From IMG/VR virus record IMGVR_UViG_2925891887_000001: a DNA stretch of 64,000 nucleotides. The stretch is one strand, 5' to 3'. Source of the DNA: a virus (Duplodnaviria; Heunggongvirae; Uroviricota; Caudoviricetes). Numbering within the stretch: the stretch's first letter is position 1; each line of letters starts with the position of its first letter. A program made the translations under genes and the position numbers. Positions 9,165 to 64,000 of the stretch are shown one piece after another. The notes under the pieces are model-generated. The model did not search any database and was not told where the DNA came from. It worked only from the letters and a program-made list of their open reading frames with translations.

Positions 9165-10739
9165 ATGGAATTGAACGACAAACAAATTAAGGATCTGGTG
9201 GCGCGACGCCACCCGGAATACGAAAAGAAAAAAGAACATTGGGACTTCCTCGCCAGCACTTACGCTGGCGGGCGTGGTTGGTTTACAGACAATATCTTTC
9301 GTTACTTTAAAGAGGGAGATCAGGAGTTTAAGGAGCGAGTTGAACGTGCTTATCGCTTCAACCACACTCGTGAGGTGGTAAACCTCATCAACAAATATCT
9401 CTTTAAAGAAGACATTCATAGAAATATCGAAGAGGCACCAGAGCAGATCCGCAATTTCTGGAAACGTGCGACTCGCCAGAATGCCTCTATTGACTCATTT
9501 ATGGCCGCTATTGATTTGCAGTCGTCTATTTACGGTCGCATATGGGTTGTTGTCGATAGCACGATGAGTGGTGATGTTGAGTCAGTAGCTGACGAGAAAA
9601 AGAAAGATGCTCGCGCCTACGCCTACTGGATTTCACCTCAGCAAATGCTGGATGTGGCATGGGACGACGACGGGAATATGTTGTGGGCGTTAATTGTGGA
9701 AGTCGCTCGTGATGACGCAGATCCTTTTACTTCTACAGGTCAGGAATACCAACGTTATCGTCTGTGGACACAAAACGAGTGGTATCTGTTCCGTGAGGAA
9801 GTGAAGAAGGGCGCTGGTGGAGCAGGTCGCCGTCAGGCAAAAGTTATTTTAGAGGATAGCGGTGAGCATAATCTCGGCGTAGTTCCTGTGTTTCCTGTTG
9901 ATTGTATTGGAGAAAGTGAATCACCGTATTTCAGCCCATCGTTGATCGATGATATCGCTTATCTTGATCGTGCGGTTGCAAACTATCTGTCAAACCTTGA
10001 TGCCATTATTCAGGATCAGACATTTAGCCAGTTGGCTATACCGGTACAGTCGCTTTTACCTGGTGATGAAAACCACACTAAAGTGCTTGAAATGGGCACA
10101 AAGCGAGTCTTCACCTACGATTCTGAAGGTGGAAACCAGCCGTTTTATCTGTCACCAGACCCGAAACAAGCTCAGATGATCATCACTACGATTAAGACGG
10201 TGATTAACGAAATCTACCATTCAGTTGGTGTAGCTGGTGAGCGAACGAAGCAGGACAACGCACAGGGAATCGATAATTCATCTGGTGCCGCAAAAATGTA
10301 TGACTTCCAGCGTGTAAATAGCTTGCTTGTCACAAAAGCAGAGCGTCTGGAAAGGGCTGAACGCCAAATCATGCTACTGGTTGCGAAATGGATGGGGGCA
10401 GATCTGGACGAAGACCACTCTTTAATTGCGTATCCAGAAAGTTTCGATATTCGTGGCCTTACTGATGAATTTTCTGTTGCCGAGAAACTGTCATTACTTC
10501 AGGCACCGGACTCTGTACGTCGTCACCAGATGGAAATGCTTATTGAGAAGATTTTCCCGAACATTACTGAGGCGATGAAAAAGGAATTTGATAAAGATCT
10601 CTTGAATTTTCCTCCAAAAAATGATCTAAATACCCTTGAAAATAAGTCAGTACTTACTTATGATCGTGGTGCAGCCCAAGAAAGCGGGCAAGATCAACCC
10701 CGAGGGAATGGGGACTCATCTACTCAAGAGAACGAGTGA
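9165..10739 (+). CDS. Portal protein
   Basis: 524-aa protein directly after terminase; size and position typical of portal. Confidence 0.7.
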   Translation: MELNDKQIKDLVARRHPEYEKKKEHWDFLASTYAGGRGWFTDNIFRYFKEGDQEFKERVERAYRFNHTREVVNLINKYLFKEDIHRNIEEAPEQIRNFWKRATRQNASIDSFMAAIDLQSSIYGRIWVVVDSTMSGDVESVADEKKKDARAYAYWISPQQMLDVAWDDDGNMLWALIVEVARDDADPFTSTGQEYQRYRLWTQNEWYLFREEVKKGAGGAGRRQAKVILEDSGEHNLGVVPVFPVDCIGESESPYFSPSLIDDIAYLDRAVANYLSNLDAIIQDQTFSQLAIPVQSLLPGDENHTKVLEMGTKRVFTYDSEGGNQPFYLSPDPKQAQMIITTIKTVINEIYHSVGVAGERTKQDNAQGIDNSSGAAKMYDFQRVNSLLVTKAERLERAERQIMLLVAKWMGADLDEDHSLIAYPESFDIRGLTDEFSVAEKLSLLQAPDSVRRHQMEMLIEKIFPNITEAMKKEFDKDLLNFPPKNDLNTLENKSVLTYDRGAAQESGQDQPRGNGDSSTQENE

Positions 10740-40011: not shown

Positions 40012-41718
40012 ATGGAATCGATAGAAGTATTTTTAAAAAATTTTTTGGACTCAGATCATCGGGTTGCTGTCATAAAAGGAAATTGGGGAGTAGGTAAAAC
40101 GCATTATTGGAATAGCTTTTATACTAAACATTCTAAAAAATTAGATTTTAATGCATATTCATATGTTTCTTTGTTTGGAATAAATTCTATTGGAGACATT
40201 AAAAAAGCTCTTTATCATTGTGCCACACCAATTAATGAAAAGAAATATAAAGAACTGATTTTATCTGAAACGGATCGAACTATGATTCGTTATAGAAATG
40301 GGTTTTGGGGATGGTTGAAATACAACTCCTTGTCAAAATTTATAATACATTTTGGAAAGAACGATTTTTTTGGGTTCAAAACTGATAATCTGCTGTCATC
40401 TCTTGAGTATAAATTTGTTAATAATTATTTGGTTTGCATTGATGATATTGAACGAAAAGGTAGTGCGCTAGAAATTAAAGAGATTATGGGGGTAATTGAT
40501 GAGTTGGCAAGAAGAAAAAATTGCAAGGTTGTTCTAATATTAAATGAAGATAACTTACATGAAGAAACTGCACAACAACAGTTTTTAGAGTATAGAGAAA
40601 AAATAATTGATGTGGAAATAAAATACGATCCCACGCCTGAGAAAAACTTAAGAAAAGTTTTTTATGAGACTGACCCTGATTTTCTTTTGTTAAAAAACCT
40701 AGCAAATGATTTAAACATCAAAAACATTAGAATATTAAATAAAATAAAATCATCTCTAGTTATATTTAGAGATGTGCTAAAGTTAGCAGAGGATAAGGTT
40801 AGAGAAAGTTTTATTAATAGATTGGTCTTATTTTCAGTGGTTTACTATTTTGGTGTTCCTAGCGTTGATTATGCTTCATTTAAGGAGTCAATCAAAAATA
40901 TACATGCATTCGACTATATGTTAGATGATAAAGATGAAAAGGAAGAAGTTAACTCTGTATATTCATTTGTTAATAGCCTTGATGTTATTTATGAACGAGC
41001 AGAAAGTGCTTTCGATGATGATATAGATTTTTACCTTAAGAACGGTTATGTTTCTTCTGAAAGCAATATTCTAAATATAATAAAAGAAAAAAATGAACAA
41101 TATAGAGATAATAGGGTTTTATGTGAGGTTTATAAAATTTGGGATGTTTTTAGAAACTCTTTTAAAGATAATGAATCAGAGTTTATTTTTCAAATTGAGC
41201 GCGTAATTAACGATAGTCTGTTGCGTATACCAATTGGACAGTTCGTAGGTTTAATAAATGTCCTAATTAAATTGGATAGAGATTGTAATAATATTATAGA
41301 GGCATATGCAGATGCTTTTGTTAATAAAGACAATGCGTATGCTACATTTAATTCTTTGCGAGTAGAGATCTTCGGAAATGAAGAATTAGGTTTCAGAATT
41401 GAAAAAAAATTGAAAGATAGAAATCCAGATGACTATAACTTAGATAAAATTATAAAAAAAATAGCTGGTGGAAGATTTAACCATAGTGATGTGAATATTC
41501 TTAACAGTTTTTCTAAAGATGATTACGTAAACTGGATATTATCCTGTGATCAGGATGCTTTGAATTTAGTAGAAGAGACTATGCTCAAGTTCAAGGGTAT
41601 GCAACACCCGACAGACGAACAGAAGAGCATCACTGATAAAGCAATAGAAGCTTTGGAGGAAGTTGCTTCAAAATCAACACTTAATAAGCTGCGTGTTAAT
41701 AAAATACTCAATCATTAA
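40012..41718 (+). CDS. KAP-family P-loop NTPase-like protein, low-GC cargo gene
   Basis: Walker A GNWGVGKT and Walker B LVCIDDIER about 120 aa later (KAP-like spacing); strongly AT-rich versus flanks; bracketed by hairpin 39962-39990 and palindrome 41728-41785. Confidence 0.55.
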   Translation: MESIEVFLKNFLDSDHRVAVIKGNWGVGKTHYWNSFYTKHSKKLDFNAYSYVSLFGINSIGDIKKALYHCATPINEKKYKELILSETDRTMIRYRNGFWGWLKYNSLSKFIIHFGKNDFFGFKTDNLLSSLEYKFVNNYLVCIDDIERKGSALEIKEIMGVIDELARRKNCKVVLILNEDNLHEETAQQQFLEYREKIIDVEIKYDPTPEKNLRKVFYETDPDFLLLKNLANDLNIKNIRILNKIKSSLVIFRDVLKLAEDKVRESFINRLVLFSVVYYFGVPSVDYASFKESIKNIHAFDYMLDDKDEKEEVNSVYSFVNSLDVIYERAESAFDDDIDFYLKNGYVSSESNILNIIKEKNEQYRDNRVLCEVYKIWDVFRNSFKDNESEFIFQIERVINDSLLRIPIGQFVGLINVLIKLDRDCNNIIEAYADAFVNKDNAYATFNSLRVEIFGNEELGFRIEKKLKDRNPDDYNLDKIIKKIAGGRFNHSDVNILNSFSKDDYVNWILSCDQDALNLVEETMLKFKGMQHPTDEQKSITDKAIEALEEVASKSTLNKLRVNKILNH

Positions 41719-44105: not shown

Positions 44106-45287
44106 ATGAGCCTTTATGTTATATCAACATTTAGGTTGGTCACAATATTGCCTGTTAAAAGTGGAATTATCGTGAGCGAGCTGAAAGAGCTAATTGCCGA
44201 ATTAGATTTTGAACAATGGTTGGATACTGAAGGTATCGTTTATCGACGTGGAGGCGTGAGTGCTCGCGGTCGTGAAGTGAATATCAAAGAGTGTCCGGTA
44301 TGCGGCAGCTCCAACTGGAAGGTATATTTCAATCTGACCAGTGGCGTCGGCAAATGCTTCGCTGGTGATCATCCCGAAGAGATTCAGTTCAATAAGCTGG
44401 TCTTCCTCAAGCACTACAGCGGTAAATCACGACGACAGTTCGAGGAATATGTGCAGAACGCTCTTCTTTCCCAGGGGTGGACACCAAAGAAAGAAGAGCT
44501 AGTGCTTGCAAGCACAGTCGAGTTAGAGGGGCCAGTTGCACTCCCTCGTCATTACGAGCTTCCTATAGATGGCCGTCTTCCAGACTATCTGGTTGAACGA
44601 AACATATCACCTGAAATGGCAAAGTATTTTGACCTACGATACTGCGTCGAAGGCAAGCACGCTTATGTAGATCCGTATACAGATCAGGTAAAAGGGCAGA
44701 TATTCGATATGCGAATACTGATACCGGTTTACGATCTGGATGGGGTAATGAAGACATTTCAGGGACGAGACATTACCGGTACAGCAGAACGCCGCTACCT
44801 CTTTCCTATGCAGCTTCCAGCTTCAGGTAAATTTCTCTACAACGGCCATAATGCAGTCGGCAAACAGACTGTAGTTGTCTGTGAGGGTTCGTTCGATGTT
44901 ATGGGGGTCAAACGAGCTATTTTCGACGAAGAAACATTACGTGATTACGTGGAGCCAATAGGAACGTTCGGGATGCATCTATCTGGCAACACCACTCAGG
45001 ATGCAGAAGATCAGTTGGGCGCGTTCCTGACGCTCAAGGCGCGTGGATTACGTAATGTGATCATGATGTGGGATAGTGAAAAGCAAGCTATACGAAACAC
45101 GATGGCCGCAGCCAGGCGACTGACCAGTATTGGTCTTAATGTCAAAGTTGCGTGTTTGGGCGAGGAAGGACTCGACCCCGGCGATGCGACACCGGGGCAG
45201 ATTATCAAAGCCTACTATTGCGCAAAACCTTATTCACGACAGCTTGAACTTTTAAGCAAGGTAAAAGGTATAGCAGCATTAGTTTGA
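44106..45287 (+). CDS. DNA primase (zinc finger + TOPRIM)
   Basis: Zn-binding-like CPVCGSS...KCFAGDH; TOPRIM motifs VVVCEGSFDVMGV and MWDSE; track ORF starts 44034 but includes a hairpin, so start is probably 44106 or 44173. Confidence 0.7.
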   Translation: MSLYVISTFRLVTILPVKSGIIVSELKELIAELDFEQWLDTEGIVYRRGGVSARGREVNIKECPVCGSSNWKVYFNLTSGVGKCFAGDHPEEIQFNKLVFLKHYSGKSRRQFEEYVQNALLSQGWTPKKEELVLASTVELEGPVALPRHYELPIDGRLPDYLVERNISPEMAKYFDLRYCVEGKHAYVDPYTDQVKGQIFDMRILIPVYDLDGVMKTFQGRDITGTAERRYLFPMQLPASGKFLYNGHNAVGKQTVVVCEGSFDVMGVKRAIFDEETLRDYVEPIGTFGMHLSGNTTQDAEDQLGAFLTLKARGLRNVIMMWDSEKQAIRNTMAAARRLTSIGLNVKVACLGEEGLDPGDATPGQIIKAYYCAKPYSRQLELLSKVKGIAALV

Positions 45288-46532
45288 ACCAGTATTAGTC
45301 ACGTAAACATTGACCGAAAATGATTTAACTTCTGTGTTGAAGTTGTCAGTCATTACCGCGAGGTAGGCATTCTTGGTATCTCTGAATTGCTTCAGGATGA
45401 TTTGAACGTTATCGGTGCAAACAAACGAGGTAGCCAGATTGCCTCCTTTCTCTGAAAAATCCTTCAAGAAGGTGCAGTCAACTTTGCCATCATTAGCGGT
45501 GAAGACGGCATCATCACCCTGCCAGGTAAATGTTGCGTTAACGCCTTTATCAATGGATTTAGCAATAAGTCGCTGAGTGTCAGATTTGGCATTTTGCTGT
45601 TTTGAAGGCGAACGGAACGTACCTTTTGCTTTCATTGCAGCAACGTTTTCGCAGCCCGTTTCGTCATCTTTATCGCAAGCAGCTTGGTAAAGCTCTGATG
45701 CTTTCCGATAATCCTGTTTGACGCCCAATCCCTTAAGATACATGTAACCAAGGTGGTTCATGGCATAATCATTTCCTAAGCTGATTGCTTGTTCTAAAAG
45801 ACTTCTGGCCTTCGAATAGTCTTTTTTTATACCTTCTCCATGCATCAACTTGTATCCAAGCGCGCTCATGGCGTTATTATTTCCTAATTCAGCTGCTTTC
45901 AAGTACCACTTAATTGCCTCTTTATTGTTGCGCTTAACAGCAACACCATCGTCGTACATAGAGCCTAGCCCATACATTCCTGCGGCATTTCCACTATCCG
46001 CAGCCTTTTTATAAGATTTAAATGCTTTCTTGTAATCTTTCGGAACTCCCTTACCGTATTGATATAAATATCCCATATAGGCAAGCGAAGGTATATCACC
46101 AGCTTCTACTGCTAGTTTGTGATATTTTAAAGCAGCTTCTGGGTCCTCCTTTCCAGTCCAACCTCGTTCGTATATAACGGCAAGATTATGGTAAGCACTG
46201 CCGTTGCGAGCATTTCCTGCTAGTTTGTAGTACTCAACGGCCTTATTTAGATCTTTATCTACTCCCTTCCCAATTGTGTACATAACCCCAAGCGCATAAT
46301 ATGCTACTTTATCTCCCTTTTCTGCGGCGAGATCGATCCACTTCTTGGCCTCTACTAAATCCTCATCAAAGCCATTAGCCCCATCCAAATAATTTGTCCC
46401 TAACGCACTTTGTGCTGTGGTATCTCCTGCGGTGGCGGCGTCGATCAGCGTTTGTTTATTATCTGCGTTAACGTATCCAGGGCCGAAAAGCAAAGCTAAT
46501 GCCAGCAACGATGAAGGTTTTATGAGTTTCAT
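45279..46532 (-). CDS. Sel1-repeat (TPR-like) secreted protein
   Basis: Signal peptide (MKLIKPSSLLALALLFGPGYVNA), then at least 8 Sel1-like repeats (A..YxLGxMYxxGxGVxxDxxxAxxWYxKAA); only minus-strand gene in this block. Confidence 0.7.
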   Translation of the reverse strand: MKLIKPSSLLALALLFGPGYVNADNKQTLIDAATAGDTTAQSALGTNYLDGANGFDEDLVEAKKWIDLAAEKGDKVAYYALGVMYTIGKGVDKDLNKAVEYYKLAGNARNGSAYHNLAVIYERGWTGKEDPEAALKYHKLAVEAGDIPSLAYMGYLYQYGKGVPKDYKKAFKSYKKAADSGNAAGMYGLGSMYDDGVAVKRNNKEAIKWYLKAAELGNNNAMSALGYKLMHGEGIKKDYSKARSLLEQAISLGNDYAMNHLGYMYLKGLGVKQDYRKASELYQAACDKDDETGCENVAAMKAKGTFRSPSKQQNAKSDTQRLIAKSIDKGVNATFTWQGDDAVFTANDGKVDCTFLKDFSEKGGNLATSFVCTDNVQIILKQFRDTKNAYLAVMTDNFNTEVKSFSVNVYVTNTGSN

Positions 46533-52358: not shown

Positions 52359-52373
52359 GTTGAACAGTGCAAT

Positions 52374-53636
52374 TTACTTTGCATAGTCGCCCAATTTTAA
52401 TATTTCGCGCTTATATTCATTAACCATGCTACTGGATTCAGTATAAATTCGATTTAAAAGATTATCGTTATCTTTATTTTCATTTATCTTAATTAGTGCT
52501 AATTTATATTCATAGTCATCAAATGCCACAATTAAATGGTGGCCTGGGATTATATCTTCGTCACTCTTAAAGTATATATCTTCAAGTATGTAATCTAGTT
52601 GATTAGATTTTCTTTTCTCGATGTAATCTTCAGCCATAGCTATTACATCATTCCTGTCATTTAACCTGTTTTTTTCGGAAGGCACATCTTCGTAATGTTG
52701 CACGATTGAACAACCAATAAGGCGTGGGATGTAAACGTCAAAATGAGTAACTCTATCATTCGCGGTTTTAAGTAGTTCCTCAAAGTAGTTTCTTACATGT
52801 AAAGGCAACTTCTCAAAGTAATCATTAATTATAGGAGAACAAGGAGTTTTATAATTCATAAGAACCGACGGTACGAGCTTTGGGTGTCGAAACATCCAGT
52901 CCCTTTTAACGTCCGATGGAACATAATAACTTTTAATGATATTATCAAAATAATTTATCATTCGAGATTTGAATATTTTGTTGAATCTAAGGTTTATGAA
53001 TGTATCCAGATAAGGCATATTTGAATAAGCATCATCAAAAAATATTTCATCATTGAAAAAATCATATTTATTCAATAAACAACACAGTTTTTCCGAATTA
53101 ATATGTTCACAATAATCGATTTTTAATCCAAAGATAGCAATGATCAACTTCATCTGAGGTGGGATTTTAAAAATTAATTGTGACACATACGCTCTTTTTT
53201 CCTTGAGACATTCCCCATCAATATAAAATGAACCATCCACATACTCAAATATATTAATAATATGCTTCACATACTGTATTACCTCATGCTGTCTTACCAA
53301 TGGATAATATAGTCTATGTAACTCATCGCTGTTTAAATTAATTTTGTGTTTATCGATAATTTGTTTTGCAAGAAGACATAACTCATCATGTTGATTTAAT
53401 AAGGAATCAAACCATTGTTTAAATGCACTCTTTCGCATTTCGAACAATGATTCAGTTGTTAATTGAAGGGCTGAAAAAGCTGCTTTTGCACTTTTTCTCG
53501 CTTCGTAGGCATTCCATGCTGTTGCTATAAAAGCAAATGCTGTAGCCAATGTTCCAACAGTTTGACCATTTAAAACAACCCAATCCCAAAAAATGACGGT
53601 GAGCAGTAGTATAATAATGAAAATTAAAAAAGGCAT
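52374..53636 (-). CDS. Hypothetical membrane protein, low-GC cargo gene
   Basis: 420 aa; N-terminal hydrophobic segments (FLIFIIILLLTVIFWDWVV; LATAFAFIATAW); strongly AT-rich; only minus-strand gene here. Confidence 0.5.
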   Translation of the reverse strand: MPFLIFIIILLLTVIFWDWVVLNGQTVGTLATAFAFIATAWNAYEARKSAKAAFSALQLTTESLFEMRKSAFKQWFDSLLNQHDELCLLAKQIIDKHKINLNSDELHRLYYPLVRQHEVIQYVKHIINIFEYVDGSFYIDGECLKEKRAYVSQLIFKIPPQMKLIIAIFGLKIDYCEHINSEKLCCLLNKYDFFNDEIFFDDAYSNMPYLDTFINLRFNKIFKSRMINYFDNIIKSYYVPSDVKRDWMFRHPKLVPSVLMNYKTPCSPIINDYFEKLPLHVRNYFEELLKTANDRVTHFDVYIPRLIGCSIVQHYEDVPSEKNRLNDRNDVIAMAEDYIEKRKSNQLDYILEDIYFKSDEDIIPGHHLIVAFDDYEYKLALIKINENKDNDNLLNRIYTESSSMVNEYKREILKLGDYAK

Positions 53637-53810
53637 GTATGTATTTCACTCTACTAACTATAAAATATTAGGCTAATGTTAACCAAACAATGCCTTAATT
53701 AATAGATTGATCGAGGCTTTAATAGCTTTATAATGCAGACTTTAAAGATAAGTATGCACATACCTATCTTCTTTGTAAGTAAAGTTGCATATCAATTCTA
53801 TGAGGTAACA

Positions 53811-54266: not shown

Positions 54267-55370
54267 ATGAAAAATAGCTTTGACAGAGCACGCGCTGCGG
54301 AGAACACCTCAAAAGAGGCGATTGAGTATCTCGAAAGAGCATCTCAAATGCAGGCCGTTATGATCTCGCAGGTCAGCAATGACATGAGATTCTCGGACGC
54401 ATTCATGTTATTCACTCGCTTATCTCTGCTGATAACAAGACGTCGGCCAGAGATCGCTGTTCATTGTATTTTGATACATGTTTTGCCGCACATTGCCGAT
54501 GTAAAAGTAAGTGACATTAATAGGTTCATGGTGAACCAACTGGTCAACCCACTAATACTGGATGGCAAAATTGTTATGGGCCGCCGCGTTTTCTCTCTGA
54601 TGAAGCAGTTCCTTAGCTGGTGCGCCTTCCAGGGGATGATAGACGTGTCACCGTTAAACGATATGTCACTAAACAAAGTTGCCGGTGGCGCAAAGCCCAC
54701 ACCTCGCGAGCGGAAGCTGACCGACGCAGAGGTATGGGTGTTCTGGAATATATGGGACTACTTCAATGTGTGCGCTGGTACAAAATGGGCGGCCAGGCTG
54801 TGTCTTGTATCCGCAAGACGACCTGACGAAGTACTGCGGGCTAAAAAAAGTGAGTTCAATCTTAAGCGTGGGGTTTGGAATCAAGGCAAGAGGAACAAAT
54901 CTGCCCGTGAGCATTCGCTGCCTTTAAGCACATTAATGCGCACATGTATTGAAGAGTTGTTCGAATACGGTAAAGGCAGCCAGTGGCTCGTGCCTTCGAA
55001 TAAAAAAATCGGGAAAGACCTTCCTATGTCTAAAGTGGCAATAGCCCAGGCATTACGTCGTATCCTGGAACGACCAGAACTGATGGAGCTTGAGCCATTT
55101 ACACCCCGAGACTTGCGCCGTACTGCGCGTAGTTACTTCCCAGCATTAGGCATAAGCCAGGAGGTCTCACGCAAAATCATGAACCACAGTCTTGAGGGGA
55201 TAGATCGAGTCTACGACCGGCACGATTATATGGACGAGATGCGAGACGCCTTAGAAAGTTTCTCGACGTACATCGCATCAATCGTAGAGCAACCGGATTT
55301 AGACGAAATTGACCACAAATTCAAGGGAGATCGTCTATCAACAGAGCTTATTCGTGTAAATTTTTCATAG
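54267..55370 (+). CDS. Tyrosine recombinase / integrase family protein
   Basis: C-terminal catalytic region with conserved Arg (LVSARRPDEV), box II-like PRDLRRTARSY, then NHSLEGIDRVYDRHDY with candidate catalytic Tyr; 367 aa. Confidence 0.65.
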   Translation: MKNSFDRARAAENTSKEAIEYLERASQMQAVMISQVSNDMRFSDAFMLFTRLSLLITRRRPEIAVHCILIHVLPHIADVKVSDINRFMVNQLVNPLILDGKIVMGRRVFSLMKQFLSWCAFQGMIDVSPLNDMSLNKVAGGAKPTPRERKLTDAEVWVFWNIWDYFNVCAGTKWAARLCLVSARRPDEVLRAKKSEFNLKRGVWNQGKRNKSAREHSLPLSTLMRTCIEELFEYGKGSQWLVPSNKKIGKDLPMSKVAIAQALRRILERPELMELEPFTPRDLRRTARSYFPALGISQEVSRKIMNHSLEGIDRVYDRHDYMDEMRDALESFSTYIASIVEQPDLDEIDHKFKGDRLSTELIRVNFS

Positions 55371-55751
55371 AGACTTTATGGCCTCAACAACCTTTTGTGA
55401 TGCGCCTTTCTCTTTACCGAATCGCTCGTTATATGCAGCAAGAACCTGTTTTTCGTCCTCGTTAAGAGGAGCGGTGCCTTCTTTGTATAAAAATGCTGCG
55501 AGTTCAGGTTGGCGTTCTTCCAGCACCATCATCATAAGACGACTTGGCTCAATACCCAGCGCCAGCGCCAACGGACGAACCTTATCGATAGGCAAAGGAA
55601 TTTTGCCACTTTTAATTAAAGAAAGGTTGTTGGCATTTTTATAACCAATAAGTCTGGCTATTTGGGCCTGACTCATAGGTGAGGATTCAATCAGCCCTGC
55701 GATAAAAGCGGCATAGCGACTTTCTATAAATTCAATCTTGTTGTCAGACAT
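55365..55751 (-). CDS. XRE-family HTH transcriptional regulator (repressor-like)
   Basis: HTH segment SQAQIARLIGYKNANNLSLIKSG; 128 aa; divergent from 56002 ORF, with palindrome GGTAAGTGCTTACC about 32 bp upstream of its start. Confidence 0.65.
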   Translation of the reverse strand: MSDNKIEFIESRYAAFIAGLIESSPMSQAQIARLIGYKNANNLSLIKSGKIPLPIDKVRPLALALGIEPSRLMMMVLEERQPELAAFLYKEGTAPLNEDEKQVLAAYNERFGKEKGASQKVVEAIKSL

Positions 55752-56001: not shown

Positions 56002-56214
56002 ATGAACACCACTATTTCCAGCCTAATCGCTCTTGAGATCGGACACGTACAGAAATTAGCTGATGAGTGTGTAGCTGACATCCTCACCGATCTACCGAAT
56101 GAGCAGATTCAGGTTGGTGTGAATGACACAACTGGCTTTATATTCGAACTTAACAACAAACGCTTCACGCTTCTCAATATCGGCTCCGGGTCTTTAGCCG
56201 TCAGAATCTGTTAA
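56002..56214 (+). CDS. Hypothetical small protein
   Basis: 70-aa ORF divergent from XRE regulator; followed by hairpin at about 56229-56263. Confidence 0.3.
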   Translation: MNTTISSLIALEIGHVQKLADECVADILTDLPNEQIQVGVNDTTGFIFELNNKRFTLLNIGSGSLAVRIC

Positions 56215-56312
56215 CCCCTCTTCTCCCTGCGCGAATGGCTTAGTTCCCTGTTCGCGCAGTGCTACATTAAACACACTAGTAAATAATTTGTTTTCATAAC
56301 AAAGGATTAGCC

Positions 56313-58421
56313 ATGTCTAAAAAACGTTCCATCAAAGAGGTTCAGGACTTCCGTGACAGTGTAAAACGAGTAGTCGCTCTCCTTTCAGGTAAAAACATCC
56401 CTGTTGCAGAACGAGGGGACGACGCTTATGTACGCTATAACGATGATGGAGAGCCAATTCTCGTAAACATCCCATCAATCCCGGATAACGCAACACCGGC
56501 ATTGATGAATGCTGTGCGCGGATTTCTCGATCATGAGGTTGCTCACATTTTGTTTACCGATATTCGTGTGTCCAACAAAATGAGAGAAAAAGGACGCGTT
56601 CCTTCCTGGTCGCTATGGAATGCCTTAGAAGACGTGTTCATCGAGCGAAAAATGGGTCAGGTCTTTAACGGAACAAGACGTAATCTGATGGCAACTCAGC
56701 GCCTTATAATCGAAAAAGTCTTTAAACCAAAGGCTTCAGAGGCTATTGCTTATTGTGGCAAAGATCAGCGCGCGCTTTTTCTAAACTTCTTTCTCTGTCC
56801 GGTTGTAAGAGCCTGGGATGGCCAAGCACCGTTCGTAGATTTCATGGATGAACATTGGCCTGTCATTGAGAAACCAATTTCATTATTAAAAGAACATGGT
56901 ATCGATGTGGCCGTGCGTAACATGTCTTGCACCGAGGATTGTGTAAAGGTGGCTGCGACCATAGCTAAGATCCTCAAAGACACTGAAAGTGAAAGCAAAG
57001 GTAAGGAGTCAGCTCCGGGAAAAACTTCCGATCCTTCAGACGCTGACCAGACGGATGCCTCTGGAGAAAACAATGAAGACAACGAAGATCATGAGACTCC
57101 CTCAGTGTTAGATAATCACAAATCTATCAAATCAGAATCACATAGTAAGTACAAACATGATAATAACAACAGTGATGATTCAGATAATTCTGAATCATCA
57201 GAAACAATATTCGATGATACAGAAAATGATAAAGAGGTATCAGATTCTGATGCTTCTGATAACGCGGCGTCAGAATCATTAACCGCTGACCACGAAAAAA
57301 GAAAAACGACAGAAGACGGCTCTTCAGATATCCCAACTCCGTCAAAAATGAGTCTGGAAGAGGCTTTAGAGGAGCTGGATAGCATAGAAGATGAAGTCGG
57401 AGGCATGACAGAAGATGCTCTATCCGAAACGATTAAAAGCGAGTTAACAGAAAGCTCGAAAAGCGAATACAGGCCATACAATCGCTCATACGACTTCATC
57501 GGCTCGATTGATCAGGCAGAAGCCCATATCAAACGGCTTATTAAAACATTCTCCGATATTGATTTGGGAGGATATCCAATCAGCCGCTATCGCATCGTTC
57601 CTGAAGGCAACCAGCTCTTCGACAAATATATTGAAAAGCATCTTTCGTCAGGTGTTTCGTCGACGCTGGCAAAAGACCTGGAGCGAGCAATAGCAAGCAG
57701 AAACAGAGTTCAGTTTATACCGGGCCAGCGTCGGGGGCGCATTCATGGTTCTAGTATCTACAGATTAGCAATGAATGATGCTCGCGTGTTTCGTAAAAAA
57801 GAAGAATCTAAAGCCGTTAACGCCTGTGTTCAACAAGTGATTGATTTATCAGGTTCAATGAGTGGTATAACGATTAAACTGGCTCTTGCAAGTGCATATA
57901 CCATCGCCGATGCCCTTGATCGAATAAATGTTCCCAACATTATCACTGGCTTCACTACATTTGGTAGTCATATGGCGGCAGGAGAACTTAAGGCTGTCAA
58001 GTATGAGTTCTCTCGCTTTGAATCTTTAATGCTACCTATCATCAAAAATTGGAATGAAAAGGTAAATTCTCGCGAAGTTCGCTCACGTATGGGGTGCGTA
58101 GGCTACACATTCCCACTTCTTAATAACGTGGATGGTGAAAGCATAGCCAGCCTTGCATCGTTATTTTCCGGTCGCATGGAGGACAGGAAGATCATGCTTG
58201 TTCTGAGTGATGGCGCGCCGTGGGCTGTTGGGAGAGGTTTTGACGCTCATTTGCGTTCAGTTGCGAAGCAAATTGAAACGCAGACTGATATTGATTTGAT
58301 GGCAATTGGCATCATGACTGACGCACCGGAGAGATTTTACTCAAATCATGCCCTGGTAACGAGCGTTGATAGTCTTGGTTCATCTGTAGTTACTGAACTA
58401 TCTCGTATCATTTTAAAGTGA
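56313..58421 (+). CDS. von Willebrand factor A domain protein (CobT-like) with long acidic linker
   Basis: MIDAS-type motif DLSGSMSG in C-terminal VWA region; central acidic, Ser/Asp/Glu-rich low-complexity stretch; 702 aa. Confidence 0.65.
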   Translation: MSKKRSIKEVQDFRDSVKRVVALLSGKNIPVAERGDDAYVRYNDDGEPILVNIPSIPDNATPALMNAVRGFLDHEVAHILFTDIRVSNKMREKGRVPSWSLWNALEDVFIERKMGQVFNGTRRNLMATQRLIIEKVFKPKASEAIAYCGKDQRALFLNFFLCPVVRAWDGQAPFVDFMDEHWPVIEKPISLLKEHGIDVAVRNMSCTEDCVKVAATIAKILKDTESESKGKESAPGKTSDPSDADQTDASGENNEDNEDHETPSVLDNHKSIKSESHSKYKHDNNNSDDSDNSESSETIFDDTENDKEVSDSDASDNAASESLTADHEKRKTTEDGSSDIPTPSKMSLEEALEELDSIEDEVGGMTEDALSETIKSELTESSKSEYRPYNRSYDFIGSIDQAEAHIKRLIKTFSDIDLGGYPISRYRIVPEGNQLFDKYIEKHLSSGVSSTLAKDLERAIASRNRVQFIPGQRRGRIHGSSIYRLAMNDARVFRKKEESKAVNACVQQVIDLSGSMSGITIKLALASAYTIADALDRINVPNIITGFTTFGSHMAAGELKAVKYEFSRFESLMLPIIKNWNEKVNSREVRSRMGCVGYTFPLLNNVDGESIASLASLFSGRMEDRKIMLVLSDGAPWAVGRGFDAHLRSVAKQIETQTDIDLMAIGIMTDAPERFYSNHALVTSVDSLGSSVVTELSRIILK

Positions 58422-58516
58422 ACAAAACAGCCTTAACGATAAGTAACCACTTACGATATATAATGATATATTTATATAAGAAGTTGAACGCTCATTAGAG
58501 AACAAAGGAAAAACGC

Positions 58517-59752
58517 ATGACGACTACTGCACTGCAAAATGAAAAAAATCCTTCTGATTACCTTGTTTGCAAGTGGTGCGGCAAATCATTTCACTATTTT
58601 AAGTCCCATGTAGCCAATGGTAATTGCGAGGGCATTCCTGAGTCAGTAAAAGATGCCGATCCTGACACCGTACTGAAAATGTACACAACGCAGTTTCCAG
58701 ATGAACCAACGCTATCGAAAAAGGCACTTGATGCAATTCAAGCTAAACGTGCCGAGCAAAAAAGCGAAATGGCCAAATCTTCTGGCTTGACCAGTAGCCC
58801 TGGCTACACAGGCACAGTTGAGTACAAGACAGATCTGGTCGCAGCTCACGAACTGCTAAACGTAACAGTGGAAGAACTCGGAACAAAACGTGGGACGCCG
58901 CTCATGGTTAGCGTCAACGTCAATACGCCGTATCCAGAGTTCGTTCCCGAAGTGAAGAAAGGCTACGTATATGGCGACTTCGAACTGATCAAAGATATTT
59001 TCATGATGCTTGAACTTGGCATACCTGGCTATTTGTGGGGTCATGCAGGAACAGGCAAATCGTCATTGCCTACACAGCTATGTGCTTTGCTCAATCGTCC
59101 GTTGATCCGTGCCCAACATACAGCATCAATGGAAGAGGCACATGTTACGGGGCAAATTCTGGCGCGTGATGGCTCTACGTATTTCGAACCTGGCTTGCTT
59201 GCGCTCGCAATGAAGCATGGCTGGGTTTACCTCGCGGATGAATACGACTTTGCGTTTCCACAAATTCTTGGCGTGTATCAGCCAGTGCTGGAAGGTGAAG
59301 CGTTGGTCATCAAAGAGGCAACTCCAGAATGGCGTCGCATTACTCCGCATGAACGGTTTGCTTTCATTGGCACTGGCAACACGAACGGATCTGGTGATGA
59401 AACCGGCTTGTACCAGGGTACAAACATCCAGAACGCCGCGAACTTTTCGCGTTTTGGCATCGTTTCGAATGTGAAATACATGAGCAAAGACGCAGAGATC
59501 AACATGTTGACAAATGCAGGCATCGTGGATGAATACGCTGAAAAGATGGTTAAGTTTGCCGGTATCGTTCGCGATGGATACGAAGAACACCTCATTAGTC
59601 AGCCAATTGGCCCTCGTGAACTTTTGTTGTCGGCCAAGATTGGAATGATGCGAGGCGACTTTGTGACAGGTATTGAGCGTTCTTTCATTAACAAACTCCC
59701 TTCAGCTTCTGCACAAGCGGCTCGTGAAGTTGTTCAAAAAATATTTGGTTAA
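58517..59752 (+). CDS. AAA+ ATPase (CobS/MoxR-like)
   Basis: Walker A GHAGTGKSS, Walker B VYLADEYDF; 411 aa; paired with downstream-facing VWA protein. Confidence 0.7.
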   Translation: MTTTALQNEKNPSDYLVCKWCGKSFHYFKSHVANGNCEGIPESVKDADPDTVLKMYTTQFPDEPTLSKKALDAIQAKRAEQKSEMAKSSGLTSSPGYTGTVEYKTDLVAAHELLNVTVEELGTKRGTPLMVSVNVNTPYPEFVPEVKKGYVYGDFELIKDIFMMLELGIPGYLWGHAGTGKSSLPTQLCALLNRPLIRAQHTASMEEAHVTGQILARDGSTYFEPGLLALAMKHGWVYLADEYDFAFPQILGVYQPVLEGEALVIKEATPEWRRITPHERFAFIGTGNTNGSGDETGLYQGTNIQNAANFSRFGIVSNVKYMSKDAEINMLTNAGIVDEYAEKMVKFAGIVRDGYEEHLISQPIGPRELLLSAKIGMMRGDFVTGIERSFINKLPSASAQAAREVVQKIFG

Positions 59753-59754
59753 TC

Positions 59755-59958
59755 GTGCGTAAAGGATGTTTCGGCTCTCTTATCGCTGCTTCTGAAACTG
59801 GTAAGGCTTGTCTGGTGTGTCCAGACAAGCCCGATTGTCACCAATCAGCAAAAGAAGTTGCGATTTCGATGCATGGGAAGTTCGTAGGCTTCCCCAATGA
59901 CAAAATCAAAAAAACCAGAAAGGTAAAAACACATGAAGGCACTGATGGTTCGAACTGA
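59755..59958 (+). CDS. Hypothetical small Cys-rich protein
   Basis: 67-aa ORF (GTG start) between CobS-like and polymerase genes; weak support. Confidence 0.25.
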   Translation: MRKGCFGSLIAASETGKACLVCPDKPDCHQSAKEVAISMHGKFVGFPNDKIKKTRKVKTHEGTDGSN

Positions 59959-62296
59959 CTTCTCACTTGGGGAGTCGGCTCTAAAAGCAGAAAACGCGGT
60001 GAAGATTGCCAGAGAAGCTGGCTACACCGCTGTAATTTCAGCAGATAGCATGAATATTGCGAGCGTTATTCCACTACAACGTGCCGCTGGTGACGACATG
60101 GCGGTTATTTGTGGTGTGAAACTAAACATTGTTGATGATCCCACATACGAGCACCGGGCTAAACTTGCTAAAGAATCTATGAGATGTATGGAATCATTAG
60201 AGCGAGGACGTAACTACTCGTTTACCGCTCTAATTAAAAATGAGAAAGGATATCGCGACATCTGCGAACTAATGACGGCGGCCAACACACGAGAACAGTT
60301 CTACTTTGTACCGCGTCTCTCGCTCGAACAGTTGGTTTCTACATATGCCAAAGGCAACATCATCCTGCTTACTTCCGACATCGGTAGCGTGTTCCAACGC
60401 AACGATTTTGCAAAAATCATAAGCACACTGATTACAGCGGGTGGAAAAGACAACTTCTATAGTGTGGTTTATCCGCACCCTACCCCATTCTACGACCAGA
60501 TTAACGTCCGGGCGATGAAAGTCGCCAGCGCATTGAAAATAGAGCCAGTGGCGTTCTATCCCGCTTATTACGAATCGATCGACGATGCAGACATTAAAGA
60601 CATTGCGCACATGGTTACGAACAACATCAAAATCGACCAGCCGCATCGTCTGCGTATCCCCCACCAGCGAGATAACGCCGTCAATGGTCGCCGCCATCTC
60701 CTTGAGGCGCTTAAAGCCTTCTCCGTTCGCATGGATGTGCCGGTAACAGCTGCAATGGCCTCAACAACGCAGGATACCATTATCGATGCCTGCACATGGC
60801 GCTGGCATGAATTGCCGCCAGCACTGCCAAAGATGGCAGACGACGAGCCTGCAACGCTGATGAAACTGGCTGTTGCAGGGCTGCGTAAACGTCTTACCAC
60901 AAAAGAGTTTGGCTACACACCACCTGCTTCTGAGAACAGGGTTTATGTTGAGCGGCTAAAGTACGAAATGGACACGCTGACTCGCCTGGGATTCTGTGGT
61001 TACTTCCTGATGGTGCGCGATCTGATGAATCATAGTCGTGAAACTGGCATTCCCGTTGGGCCTGGTCGTGGTTCCTCTGCCGGTTCTCTGGTGGCGTGGT
61101 GCATAGGCATAACCAACGTCGACCCAATCCGTCACGGTCTTCTGTTTGAGCGTTTCATCAACCCTGAGCGTCTCGACTTGCCGGATGCGGACTTGGACTT
61201 CAGCCAGGCACGTCGCCATGAGGTGATCGAGTATCTGAATGAACGCTACGGCGAAGATTACGTTGCAGGCATTCCGAACTTCACCTACCTGGGCGCAGCC
61301 TCTGCACTACGTGATACCGCTCGTATTTATGGTGTGGAGTCCGCAGATATGGCGGTATCAAAAGAGCTGAAGAACGTCGAGGATGATAGCCTTCCATTGG
61401 AGGAGCTGCGCGAACAACTGGCAAGTCTCGACAAATACGCAACAAAATATCCTGATGCATTCAATGCAGCCTGCAAGTTACAAAGCCTTATGCGTGGCTT
61501 TGGTAGACATGCGGCAGGGATGATCGTAGCAGGTGTTCCTCTGACAGAACGTACACCGGTTGAACGCCGTGGTGACGCGCGTTGTATCGCATTTGACAAG
61601 CGTTACTGCGAGGCTATGGGCCTAATTAAGCTGGACGTGCTTGGCCTGGCAACTCTCGATTTGCTCGATAGTGCAAAACGCTACATAAAAGAGAACACAG
61701 GTGAAGATATCAATCTTGATGCCATTTCTCTTGAAGATCGCAAGGTGCTGGATGGTTTTGCTGCAGGGTATACACAGGGCGTATTCCAGCTTGAATCAGG
61801 CCCAATGCGCAAGCTGCTTAAAGATTTAGGTGGTGGAATTGAGCCAATGAGCTTTAAAACGGTCGTCGCTACAACTGCGCTCTTCCGACCTGGCCCGATT
61901 CAATCCGGCATGTTGGACGATTATGTGTCCGTGGCCAAAGGCTTCATGGCCCCACATTCCTTACACCCAATGCTGGACGACATCTCTCGCGACACAAACG
62001 GAGTTCTGATTTATCAGGAACAGATCATGGCTGCTACGCGAATCTTGGCGGGGTTCTCAATGGCGGAAGCAGACTCGGTCAGGAAAGCGATCGGGAAAAA
62101 AGATATGGAGAAAATGAAATCCATTGGCGGCGACTTCATTAAGCGAGCGGAGGAAGGCTGGGTGACAGTGTCACTGGATGATGGTTCTACGAGAAAAATC
62201 CATAAAGCAGCACGCCTACTTTGTGCTGATGGTGAGCGTCGCACTTATGCCGAAGCAATGGCAATAAATGCCGACATAACGAGCTTCGATATTTGA
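59933..62296 (+). CDS. dnaE: DNA polymerase III alpha (DnaE-type), N-terminal segment ending at interruption
   Basis: Degenerate PHP-like N-terminus, palm motifs GPGRGSSAGSLVAWCIGIT and PDADLDF, FRPGP fingers motif; about 43 codons before the stop stop resembling DnaE. Confidence 0.85.
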   Translation: MKALMVRTDFSLGESALKAENAVKIAREAGYTAVISADSMNIASVIPLQRAAGDDMAVICGVKLNIVDDPTYEHRAKLAKESMRCMESLERGRNYSFTALIKNEKGYRDICELMTAANTREQFYFVPRLSLEQLVSTYAKGNIILLTSDIGSVFQRNDFAKIISTLITAGGKDNFYSVVYPHPTPFYDQINVRAMKVASALKIEPVAFYPAYYESIDDADIKDIAHMVTNNIKIDQPHRLRIPHQRDNAVNGRRHLLEALKAFSVRMDVPVTAAMASTTQDTIIDACTWRWHELPPALPKMADDEPATLMKLAVAGLRKRLTTKEFGYTPPASENRVYVERLKYEMDTLTRLGFCGYFLMVRDLMNHSRETGIPVGPGRGSSAGSLVAWCIGITNVDPIRHGLLFERFINPERLDLPDADLDFSQARRHEVIEYLNERYGEDYVAGIPNFTYLGAASALRDTARIYGVESADMAVSKELKNVEDDSLPLEELREQLASLDKYATKYPDAFNAACKLQSLMRGFGRHAAGMIVAGVPLTERTPVERRGDARCIAFDKRYCEAMGLIKLDVLGLATLDLLDSAKRYIKENTGEDINLDAISLEDRKVLDGFAAGYTQGVFQLESGPMRKLLKDLGGGIEPMSFKTVVATTALFRPGPIQSGMLDDYVSVAKGFMAPHSLHPMLDDISRDTNGVLIYQEQIMAATRILAGFSMAEADSVRKAIGKKDMEKMKSIGGDFIKRAEEGWVTVSLDDGSTRKIHKAARLLCADGERRTYAEAMAINADITSFDI

Positions 62297-62344: not shown

Positions 62345-63079
62345 ATGCCGAGTACGAAGTACAAAATCACAGAAGAATGGTTACGTCAGCGTTACATGGT
62401 TGACCTGATGAGAAAAGAAGACATTGCCGCCGAAGCTGGTTGCAGCAAGGCAAATATTGACCGCTTATTAGCCAAATGGGGGATCAGGCGCGGAAGCGCG
62501 CGGATCTCCGCTACCCCAGCCTGGAATCGTGGCAAAAACAAAAATAATGACGAACGTATGAAGCGTCTCTCCGAAGCCCGGACTGGCACTGGCAACCCTA
62601 TGTATGGGAAAACCTCGTGGAATGCCGGTCTGCGTGCTGATATCGATGAGCGAGTGGCCACCGTTTCGAAAAAGCTAACCGGCAGAACAATCCGCGCGGA
62701 GACGAAGGAAAAGCTGGCGGCTGCCAAACGCGGAAAGATCGGAGAAGAAGCGAACAACTACAAAGGTGGCATCATCGTAAAAACCAACGGCTACATGATG
62801 CAGCTGGTTGGTAACAATGGCGTTTCGCAATACGAATACGTTCATCGATTGATAGCGAAAGAACGTCTCGGTCGGGAGCTACGTGACGATGAACATGTCC
62901 ACCATATTAACCGCGATACGATAGATAACGCCCCTGGGAATCTTGTAGCACTTCCAGAAGACGCCCACATTCGCCTGCATAGTGAAATGCGTGAAGAGAT
63001 ATGGAGCTGGGAGCGCCAACGGAACTGGCTGGCCTCCAATGGGTATGAGTTCGTGAAGATTGATGAGGTGACTGCATGA
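62345..63079 (+). CDS. HNH homing endonuclease with NUMOD-like motifs
   Basis: HNH motif EHVHHINRDTIDNAPGNLVALPEDAHIRLH; NUMOD3-like repeats (GKTSWNAGL; TIRAETKEKLAAAKRG); sits inside the polymerase gene. Confidence 0.8.
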   Translation: MPSTKYKITEEWLRQRYMVDLMRKEDIAAEAGCSKANIDRLLAKWGIRRGSARISATPAWNRGKNKNNDERMKRLSEARTGTGNPMYGKTSWNAGLRADIDERVATVSKKLTGRTIRAETKEKLAAAKRGKIGEEANNYKGGIIVKTNGYMMQLVGNNGVSQYEYVHRLIAKERLGRELRDDEHVHHINRDTIDNAPGNLVALPEDAHIRLHSEMREEIWSWERQRNWLASNGYEFVKIDEVTA

Positions 63080-64000
63080 AAATTACCGGTGTTGTCGAAG
63101 AGAGCAATGGCCTGACGCACGAACGAGCCGAAGAAATCTGGAATATGTTTGAGAAATCCGGCGCGTATGCCTTCAACAAATCACACTCTGTTGCTTACTC
63201 CTTAATCAGTTATCAATCTATGTGGTTGAAAACTCATTATCCCGCAGAGTTTTTCGCTGCTGCTCTCACTATTCTTGGCGAAGATAAACACCAGGGGCTG
63301 GTTAAAGATGCGCTGACCTATGGCATTCGCGTATTGCCACCAGACGTTAACGTGTCATCTAACCGAATCGAGATCCGCACGCTTGAAGATGGCAGCCAGG
63401 TGCTGTATGCGCCCTTCTCTGCTGTGAAGGGGTGTTCTGAGAATGGCTGCCAAGCCATCATGAGAGCGCGAGAAAAAGTTGGCGGCAAATTCGAGTCACT
63501 GGCGCAATTCGAAGAAGCTGTCGAGAAACGTGCCTGTAATAGTCGAGTGCGCGAATCGCTGCAAAAAGTAGGGGCGTTTGCATCCATCGAGCCAGGCAGT
63601 CTGCCAGCAACTGATCCAGAGCGCCTACGCGACCAGGCTGAATTGATGGGAAACCTTGTCATAGACGCAGTTAAAGCCTCACGTCCGTTTGAGATGAACC
63701 CCAAACGTTCGGCTGAAATTAACGTACTCATGACGCGGATGGCGGCTGAAATGGGCTTAGGTGATGAACTAATCCGCCCCAGCATTGGTATTAAGCCGAA
63801 AATCATGATCATTCTGGACAATGCGAACGGCAATGATGCTCGAACCGGTTACTTTATGGAGAACGGATACGACGACTTTAAGGCCAAGCTATTGACGGCT
63901 GGAGATTTACGCATGGGCGATCTCTATGTCACAGGTGTTTGCAAGAAGGTTAAAGACAAAGAAAAAGACTACACCAAAGACGAGATCGGCCAGTTCACCG
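63076..64000 (+). CDS. dnaE: DNA polymerase III alpha (DnaE-type), C-terminal segment, partial (runs off window)
   Basis: ATG overlaps HNH stop (ATGA) with GAGGTG 6 nt upstream; frame open to window end; carries the conserved AYAFNKSHSVAYSLISYQSMWLKTHYPAEF block. Confidence 0.8.
   Translation, partial: MKITGVVEESNGLTHERAEEIWNMFEKSGAYAFNKSHSVAYSLISYQSMWLKTHYPAEFFAAALTILGEDKHQGLVKDALTYGIRVLPPDVNVSSNRIEIRTLEDGSQVLYAPFSAVKGCSENGCQAIMRAREKVGGKFESLAQFEEAVEKRACNSRVRESLQKVGAFASIEPGSLPATDPERLRDQAELMGNLVIDAVKASRPFEMNPKRSAEINVLMTRMAAEMGLGDELIRPSIGIKPKIMIILDNANGNDARTGYFMENGYDDFKAKLLTAGDLRMGDLYVTGVCKKVKDKEKDYTKDEIGQFT

Follow-up and report, generated by a model that had tools for sequence, protein, structure and literature searches.

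The closest described relatives of the gene pair analyzed here are the cobaltochelatase subunits CobT and CobS. Cellular CobT has an N-terminal domain resembling M48C peptidases, a disordered linker ~90 residues long and, C-terminally, a domain in which a shaft (Q373–R413) inserts into the CobS ring and is followed by a von Willebrand factor A (VWA) domain with MIDAS, the metal-ion-dependent adhesion site; CobN is clasped between the N- and C-domains (10.64898/2026.07.21.739949). This picture comes from the cryo-electron microscopy and crystal structures of a 2026 preprint (10.64898/2026.07.21.739949). CobST works solely via CobN (10.64898/2026.07.21.739949; PMC6249242). Viral cobST genes have been read as cobalamin genes, for Vibrio phage ICP2 in 2011 (PMC3037004) and for tailed viruses in 2021, when the 'peptidase' annotation of a cyanophage CobT was called a mistake (PMC8651126). 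A role in virion maturation was proposed by Iyer et al. in 2021 for the pairing of a MoxR ATPase with a metallopeptidase-vWA protein in jumbo phages (PMC7824862). Here, we analyzed a CobT-like/CobS-like pair at positions 56313–59752 of IMG/VR record IMGVR_UViG_2925891887_000001; the window, that is, the whole stretch of DNA under study, spans 64,000 nt. We propose, with moderate confidence, that the pair forms a MoxR/VWA machine that uses ATP to remodel a client during lytic replication, and that it is probably proteolytic and probably recruited to DNA.

The source element is an SSU5-type E. coli phage-plasmid. By DNA comparison, the 4-kb region around the pair shares 99.4% identity with Escherichia phage CMS-2020a, 98.5% with phage Cyrano and ~75% with Salmonella phage SSU5, and synteny comparison showed that gene order at the pair matches that of SSU5-like elements. 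Cyrano is a plasmid-prophage in E. coli strain LF82 (PMC9928086). Of 5426 complete E. coli genomes, 218 (~4%) contain the pair at a DNA identity of at least 95%; all copies are on plasmids, which measure 109–114 kb among the examples listed. These are common, already catalogued genes: NCBI names them 'cobaltochelatase CobT-related protein' and 'AAA family ATPase', and a single 90% protein cluster of the family holds 3307 sequences.

Both open reading frames (ORFs) lie on the + strand where the initial annotation had placed them, at 56313–58421 (702 aa) and 58517–59752 (411 aa). That annotation had described a VWA protein and an AAA+ ATPase resembling CobT and CobS, and the profile searches bear this out: Pfam CobT, CobT_C and AAA_5 all match, and the nearest solved structures are cobaltochelatase CobT (21vt/9uka) and CobS (9ujv). 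The 702-aa protein, hereafter the adaptor, matches Pfam CobT over aa 9–293 (E = 1e-26), CobT_C (the CobT VWA domain) over aa 492–701 (E = 3e-82), PHROG 1576 (E = 5e-301), and the CobT structures 21vt and 9uka (E = 1e-15 and 3e-13). The 411-aa protein matches AAA_5 over aa 173–293 (E = 2e-15), PHROG 249, which carries the label 'porphyrin biosynthesis', and 9ujv (E = 1e-25). Its next-best structures are midasin, CbbQ and NorQ, which places this ATPase in the MoxR class. For both proteins, the Pfam and Protein Data Bank (PDB) scores are far beyond chance. Thus, an AAA_5/MoxR ATPase gene lies beside a VWA gene with a complete MIDAS, the arrangement that defines MoxR/VWA pairs.

The adaptor follows the plan of cellular CobT, as judged from Pfam, PDB, hhalign and a predicted model: an M48-like N-domain, an acidic linker, a shaft and a VWA domain with its MIDAS. 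The N-domain (aa 1–222; 56313–56978, + strand) is predicted to have an M48-like zincin fold. In its predicted model, a helix, three strands and further helices follow one another in the order described for the CobT_N crystal structure, with the motif-bearing helices at aa 62–81 and 96–117, and its fold matches include the zincin proteases CapP, IrrE and ArdC. It contains RGFLD (aa 69–73), HEVAH (aa 74–78, codons at nt 56532–56546) and N-x-x-E-D-x-x-x-E (aa 103–111). Across 128 aligned sequences of about 35–45% identity, residues H74, E75, H78, E106, D107 and E111 do not vary. In contrast, HExxH is missing altogether from three cellular CobT proteins (Sinorhizobium, Cereibacter, Pandoraea), which carry S-M-x-x-R at the aligned position. 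The complete zincin signature of the phage protein, HExxH plus the downstream Glu, suggests that the N-domain is probably catalytically active and cuts its client.

Conservation of this motif depends on how the family is sampled. HExxH is found in 127 of 127 adaptors when the top-scoring representatives are taken, and very distant members keep it as well (Vibrio phage ICP2, Gordonia phage Jams, Roseobacter phage CRP-810, loci L139–L145). A sample anchored on CobS kept it in 57 of 74 adaptors and lacked it in 17. We first considered the motif invariant, but this proved too strong, because the statement was drawn from top-scoring or pattern-selected sets, and both the CobS-anchored sample and cultured phages show losses. 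As a separate observation, the family profile of the N-domain gave a weak match at aa ~94–140 (window positions about 56592–56732) to the anti-CRISPR AcrIIA26 (9zq6_B, E = 0.004). The match spans the N-x-V-E-D-x-F-I-E helix and may reflect chance or a shared fragment.

The linker (aa 223–360; 56979–57392, + strand) is of low complexity, with 43 D/E, 12 K/R and 36 S/T among its 138 residues, so the acidic, Ser/Asp/Glu-rich linker described earlier is real. Its supposedly unusual length is not supported. At 138 aa, versus ~90 in cellular CobT, it is shorter than 79% of 127 family representatives (median 173 aa) and 96% of 120 close relatives (median 181 aa). Judged from these sequences, an acidic and presumably disordered linker is a family trait. 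BchD of Mg-chelatase also has an acidic linker. Tandem Repeats Finder detected no tandem DNA repeat underlying the linker. The C-domain (57393–58421, + strand), comprising a shaft equivalent and the VWA domain, was delimited by residue-by-residue alignment to CobT 9uka/21vt. The shaft-equivalent segment (aa 462–503, nt 57696–57821) aligns to cellular CobT without gaps, and MIDAS residues D511, S513, S515, N605 and D633 are invariant in 44 sampled family sequences.

The CobS-like ATPase (58517–59752, + strand) keeps the AAA+ core together with CobS-specific motifs. Walker A (GHAGTGKSS) lies at aa 175–183 and the Walker B DE at aa 241–242, followed by the CobS motif TGNTNGSGDETGLYQG at aa 286–301. 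Alignments with three cellular CobS proteins and 9ujv showed conservation of both Walker motifs, of the CobS-specific TGNTNGxGD...GLYQG motif and of the C-terminal PR motif. Likenesses extend to residues at which CobT and CobS touch: R-G-x-x-D of the phage adaptor aligns with R76 and D80 of cellular CobT, which form salt bridges to the CobS lid, and lid residues E308, Q311 and R312 correspond to E404, Q407 and K408 of the phage ATPase.

The phage ATPase has an additional N-terminal region of ~140 aa, not seen in cellular CobS, the first ~60 residues of which form a conserved module with a putative Ros/MucR-type zinc finger (58556–58717, + strand). The module consensus is I-x-C-x-I-C-G-x-x-V-H-x-I-x-x-H-L-x-x-x-H-P-x-x-T-x-E-x-Y...P..P..S. 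Pfam ROS_MUCR is matched by 27 of 35 family members (best E = 1.6e-6), and the family profile matches the Ros zinc finger (PDB 2jsp) with E = 2.9e-5 and with the C-x2-C-x9-H-x4-H ligands in register. Most family fingers share this spacing and the subsequent T-x-E-x-Y with Ros/MucR, although in some members the second Cys is replaced by Asp. The window copy reads C18-x2-C21-x9-H31-x5-C37, then Y..FP..P..S. Ros/MucR proteins are stand-alone transcription factors, whereas the phage version is a ~60-aa N-terminal module on an AAA+ ATPase; the module is absent from the ICP2 ATPase as well as from cellular CobS. By its resemblance to a DNA-binding fold, the finger probably tethers the machine to DNA.

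The gene order at the locus is integrase, divergent helix-turn-helix (HTH) repressor, 70-aa ORF, cobT-like, cobS-like, 67-aa Cys4 protein, dnaE. The pair had been reported to sit directly upstream of the polymerase, and dnaE is indeed next, with the 67-aa ORF (59755–59958, + strand) in between. The order cobT–cobS–dnaE was found at 46 of 46 IMG/VR loci whose downstream sequence was long enough, at 30–40% identity and with 0.2–2.4 kb between cobS and dnaE in relatives. It recurs at ~30% identity in Pseudomonas phage nickie, Rhizobium phage RHph_X66, Stenotrophomonas phage BUCTxx99 and, after correction for frameshifts, Xanthomonas phage JGB6. A first search for related loci had returned SSU5-like loci only; the wider sets came from searches with a distant first sequence and then with CobS as anchor. 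Adjacency of the adaptor and ATPase genes is kept in all loci examined, with cobT preceding cobS, whereas cellular genomes have cobS before cobT. Where the flank of an IMG/VR locus extends far enough, DnaB, primase and ligase lie upstream, and in the unrelated podovirus ICP2 the pair heads a module of primase, helicase and PolA. JGB6 was considered as a natural loss of the pair and rejected: cobT, cobS and dnaE are present but frameshifted in the record (locus L089, 7000–14386), where they are partly labelled DNA polymerase III.

The pair is nearly silent in the lysogen. In the LF82 lysogen grown in LB, mean normalised counts (PMC9928086, S1 Table) were 95.8 for the repressor gene CYRAN_45, 20.3 for the 70-aa ORF (CYRAN_46), 7.8 for cobT (CYRAN_47), 6.7 for cobS (CYRAN_48) and 10.1 for dnaE (CYRAN_49). 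The log2 values of cobT and cobS are near the table floor of 2.32. The pair thus does not count as a lysogenic-conversion gene, and it behaves like repressed lytic genes. This near-silence was overlooked in the initial annotation, as were the zincin-like N-domain with HExxH, the putative zinc finger of the ATPase, the conserved Cys4 gene and the recurrence of the cobT–cobS–Cys4–dnaE order.

How might such a machine work? By reference to the solved CobST complex, the ATPase would form a hexameric ring. Upon ATP binding, the ring would grip the adaptor shaft (aa 462–503), which precedes the VWA domain. The client would be clamped between the MIDAS face of the adaptor and the zincin N-domain, where CobN sits in the chelatase. 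ATP-driven pulling would then remodel the client, and copies of the adaptor with HExxH would also cleave it. The zinc finger would bring the machine to DNA, and the process would serve lytic replication by acting on a client associated with DNA, with part of the phage DnaE replisome or a host protein bound to DNA as candidates. A more specific version is suggested by analogy with the Cdc48/p97 ATPase and the DNA-dependent zincins Wss1/SPRTN. Here the pair would be a DNA-tethered, ATP-driven VWA–zincin protease that evicts or processes a DNA-bound protein at the DnaE replisome, and cellular CobST would be its catalytically dead relative. The analogy is functional only, as the ATPases are not homologous, and we regard this version as unlikely.

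Several observations weigh against the proposal. HExxH has been lost in at least four lineages with the same synteny (SEISK, QEVAK, HEVAR, KEVSS), and the cultured phages nickie (SEISK) and BUCTxx99 (REVST) lack both histidines while keeping the Glu. Because the histidines are repeatedly lost and synteny is kept, proteolysis cannot be the whole conserved function, and a non-proteolytic role is sufficient in some lineages. The finger of the window protein diverges from the family pattern as a C2HC variant in which 13 aa are inserted and the last His is replaced (N36 and C37 are adjacent), and alone gives no ROS_MUCR match. With respect to the complex, the CobS shaft contacts S102, I104, D110, I112 and R147 all differ in the phage ATPase, which also ends before helix alpha10, the element that docks CobT_N in cellular CobS; the adaptor–ATPase interfaces that we infer are thus not conserved residue by residue. 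The link to DnaE is also open to question. DnaE occurs in 1177 phage records versus 33 (N-domain) or 74 (C-domain) for the adaptor, so DnaE does not generally require the pair, and related pairs are also found in phages without DnaE. Proximity to dnaE may reflect inherited module order rather than functional coupling. Finally, the initial annotation called the role of the pair in phages unknown, and literature searches gave no experimental study of it, nor any experiment on a viral CobS/CobT, an SSU5-type cobTS or a MucR–CobS fusion. Nor did the searchable literature contain the HExxH contrast between viral and cellular CobT, the Ros/MucR finger on the ATPase, or the cobT–cobS–Cys4–dnaE block.

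The genes around the pair have features of their own. The repressor gene (55365–55751, – strand) gave weak Pfam HTH matches below curated cut-offs and corresponds to CYRAN_45, the putative master repressor of Cyrano. The 70-aa ORF (PHROG 2627; 56002–56214, + strand) heads the transcription unit and is confined to SSU5-like loci. Between it and cobT, at about 56227–56259, lies a stable RNA hairpin of ~12 bp that lacks a U-tract; the surrounding 111 nt fold with –24.3 kcal/mol (z = –3.4). In RNA-seq of LF82 inside macrophages, the 70-aa ORF rose about 90-fold and cobT only about 6-fold, a disparity suggesting that the hairpin may attenuate read-through. No terminator-like site was found on the + strand between cobT and dnaE.

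The 67-aa protein (PHROG 6337) has the pattern G-C-F-G ... C-x2-C-x5-C, and its gene overlaps the start of dnaE by 26 nt. A family with G-C-F-G-x12/13-C-x2-C-x5-C is represented between cobS and dnaE at 41 of the 46 IMG/VR loci and also in 3 cultured phages. Its members are often about 180–230 aa long, and no relative was found in Pfam or PDB. The spacing of the last three Cys resembles that in some iron–sulfur cluster loops. A sigma-70-like gene lies between cobS and the Cys4 gene at 19 IMG/VR loci and in two cultured phages (for example, at 10734–11378 of L087 and 10190–10897 of L088); SSU5-like elements lack it.

In the window, dnaE is split into two ORFs. The first (59933–62296, + strand; 787 aa) encodes the N-terminal part of DnaE (Pol III alpha), with Pfam PHP, DNA_pol3_alpha and finger domains, and the second spans about 63076–64000. 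A free-standing HNH/NUMOD3 endonuclease gene (62345–63079) separates them. Cyrano dnaE is intact (3507 nt), and several IMG/VR relatives also have two ORFs. Upstream of the insertion, identity to Cyrano is 96.9%; downstream it drops to 85.7%, the pattern expected of homing with co-conversion. An Rfam scan of 55.5–64 kb found neither an RNA family nor an intron within the split dnaE.

Farther away, the structural module occupies roughly 7–35 kb of the window. A 31% GC island at 40–42 kb carries a gene for a 568-aa KAP-family P-loop NTPase (40012–41718, + strand) that matches PADLOC PDC-S49, a candidate defence system (E = 2e-21); the phage-plasmid probably carries this gene as anti-phage cargo. 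Within the replication module, the opposite strand encodes a protein of 417 aa with seven Sel1 repeats (45279–46532, – strand). The region 52360–53800 has no Cyrano counterpart. It contains a 420-aa ORF (52374–53636, – strand) with a hydrophobic N-terminus, in a 36% GC stretch, for which Pfam and PADLOC searches were negative.

Other roles for the pair were weighed against a replication-linked remodelling machine. One is that of a host-takeover or counter-defence protease that degrades a nucleoid protein or a defence factor, the link to replication being a matter of early timing only. CapP, IrrE and ArdC, the zincins among the fold matches of the N-domain, are conflict proteins; the genes adjoin the lysis–lysogeny switch; and the acidic linker could conceivably mimic DNA. 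Yet PADLOC found no defence-system match for the pair, only a marginal DrmE match for the adaptor (E = 0.001, 15.8 bits) and nothing for the ATPase. Moreover, variability is usual for conflict genes, whereas this block retains 30–40% identity in phages whose hosts include alpha- and gamma-proteobacteria. We consider such a role unlikely.

Virion assembly, in which the pair would act as a chaperone and protease that folds or processes structural proteins, was proposed for the pair of T4-like jumbo phages (PMC7824862). Compared by description, the latter likewise combines a MoxR ATPase with a vWA co-chaperone that has a zincin peptidase fused at its N terminus, and differs in being described without a zinc finger and without a link to DnaE (PMC7824862). 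For ATV, an archaeal virus, a role of MoxR–vWA proteins in the tail has been shown, and an intact zincin motif would fit. However, our pair lies outside the structural module, pairs of this kind are in the replication module in every lineage examined, and the finger fused to the ATPase is predicted to be of the DNA-binding type. A role in assembly thus seems quite improbable.

Comparison with cellular MoxR/VWA systems raises another alternative. In CbbQ/CbbO, NorQ/NorD, RavA/ViaA and BchI/BchD, as here, a MoxR-class ATPase is adjacent to a VWA–MIDAS adaptor. These systems act on defined metalloenzymes, and they lack an active protease domain on the adaptor and a DNA-binding finger on the ATPase. 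Accordingly, one can picture the phage pair as a non-proteolytic chaperone that inserts metal into, or activates, a phage metalloenzyme, for instance DnaE at its PHP domain or the di-iron protein NrdB. The presence of NorQ and CbbQ among the PDB matches, the repeated loss of the HExxH histidines with synteny kept, and the strict adjacency to dnaE in this clade are consistent with this idea. It is harder to reconcile with the more than 1100 phage records that have DnaE against at most 74 with a detectable CobT-like adaptor, and with the complete catalytic motif kept in most members. We judge it to be of low probability. Taken together, these comparisons point to a machine of the MoxR–VWA/CobST type that is not a functional member of the cobaltochelatase family.

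The remaining possibility is that the genes are what their names imply, auxiliary metabolic genes for a genuine cobaltochelatase that hijacks host CobN for cobalamin synthesis. Homology to CobS and CobT is clear, the hypothesis has been published for ICP2 and for tailed viruses, and the aerobic pathway is present in some hosts of related phages (Rhizobium, Pseudomonas). But cellular CobST has CobN as partner and the phage pair does not: the three largest ORFs of the window encode the tape measure, tail tip and tail fibre, leaving no CobN there, and CobN is absent from the 126 annotated genes of Cyrano. E. coli is not known to encode CobN or a pathway for making corrin de novo, although E. coli genomes were not directly searched for cobN. 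B12 production in E. coli needs heterologous cobN, cobS and cobT plus about 30 further genes (PMC6249242). The phage ribonucleotide reductase is of class I, which is B12-independent. Both proteins fall far below the NCBIfam equivalog cut-offs (TIGR01651 CobT, 68.1 bits versus 759; TIGR01650 CobS, 86.6 versus 559). Given also the silence of the genes in the lysogen, and a protease motif, zinc finger and reversed gene order that are not features of a chelatase, this explanation is highly improbable. Because neither the phage nor E. coli offers CobN, cobalt chelation by the pair in E. coli is very unlikely. In the Cyrano record (OV696614; locus L001, 12314–15753), the two genes are labelled 'dimethylbenzimidazole phosphoribosyltransferase' and 'cobalamin synthetase'. 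These labels are wrong, and stem from a name collision with the unrelated CobT and CobS of Salmonella.

Virome studies routinely count viral cobS and cobT as B12 'auxiliary metabolic genes'. For SSU5-type enterobacterial phage-plasmids this label cannot fit, as there is no CobN and no substrate. If the pair is instead a replication-linked remodelling protease, a widely used annotation would need to change, this conserved block, found in a clinically common plasmid family, would gain a function, and the chelatase motor would have a candidate evolutionary origin.

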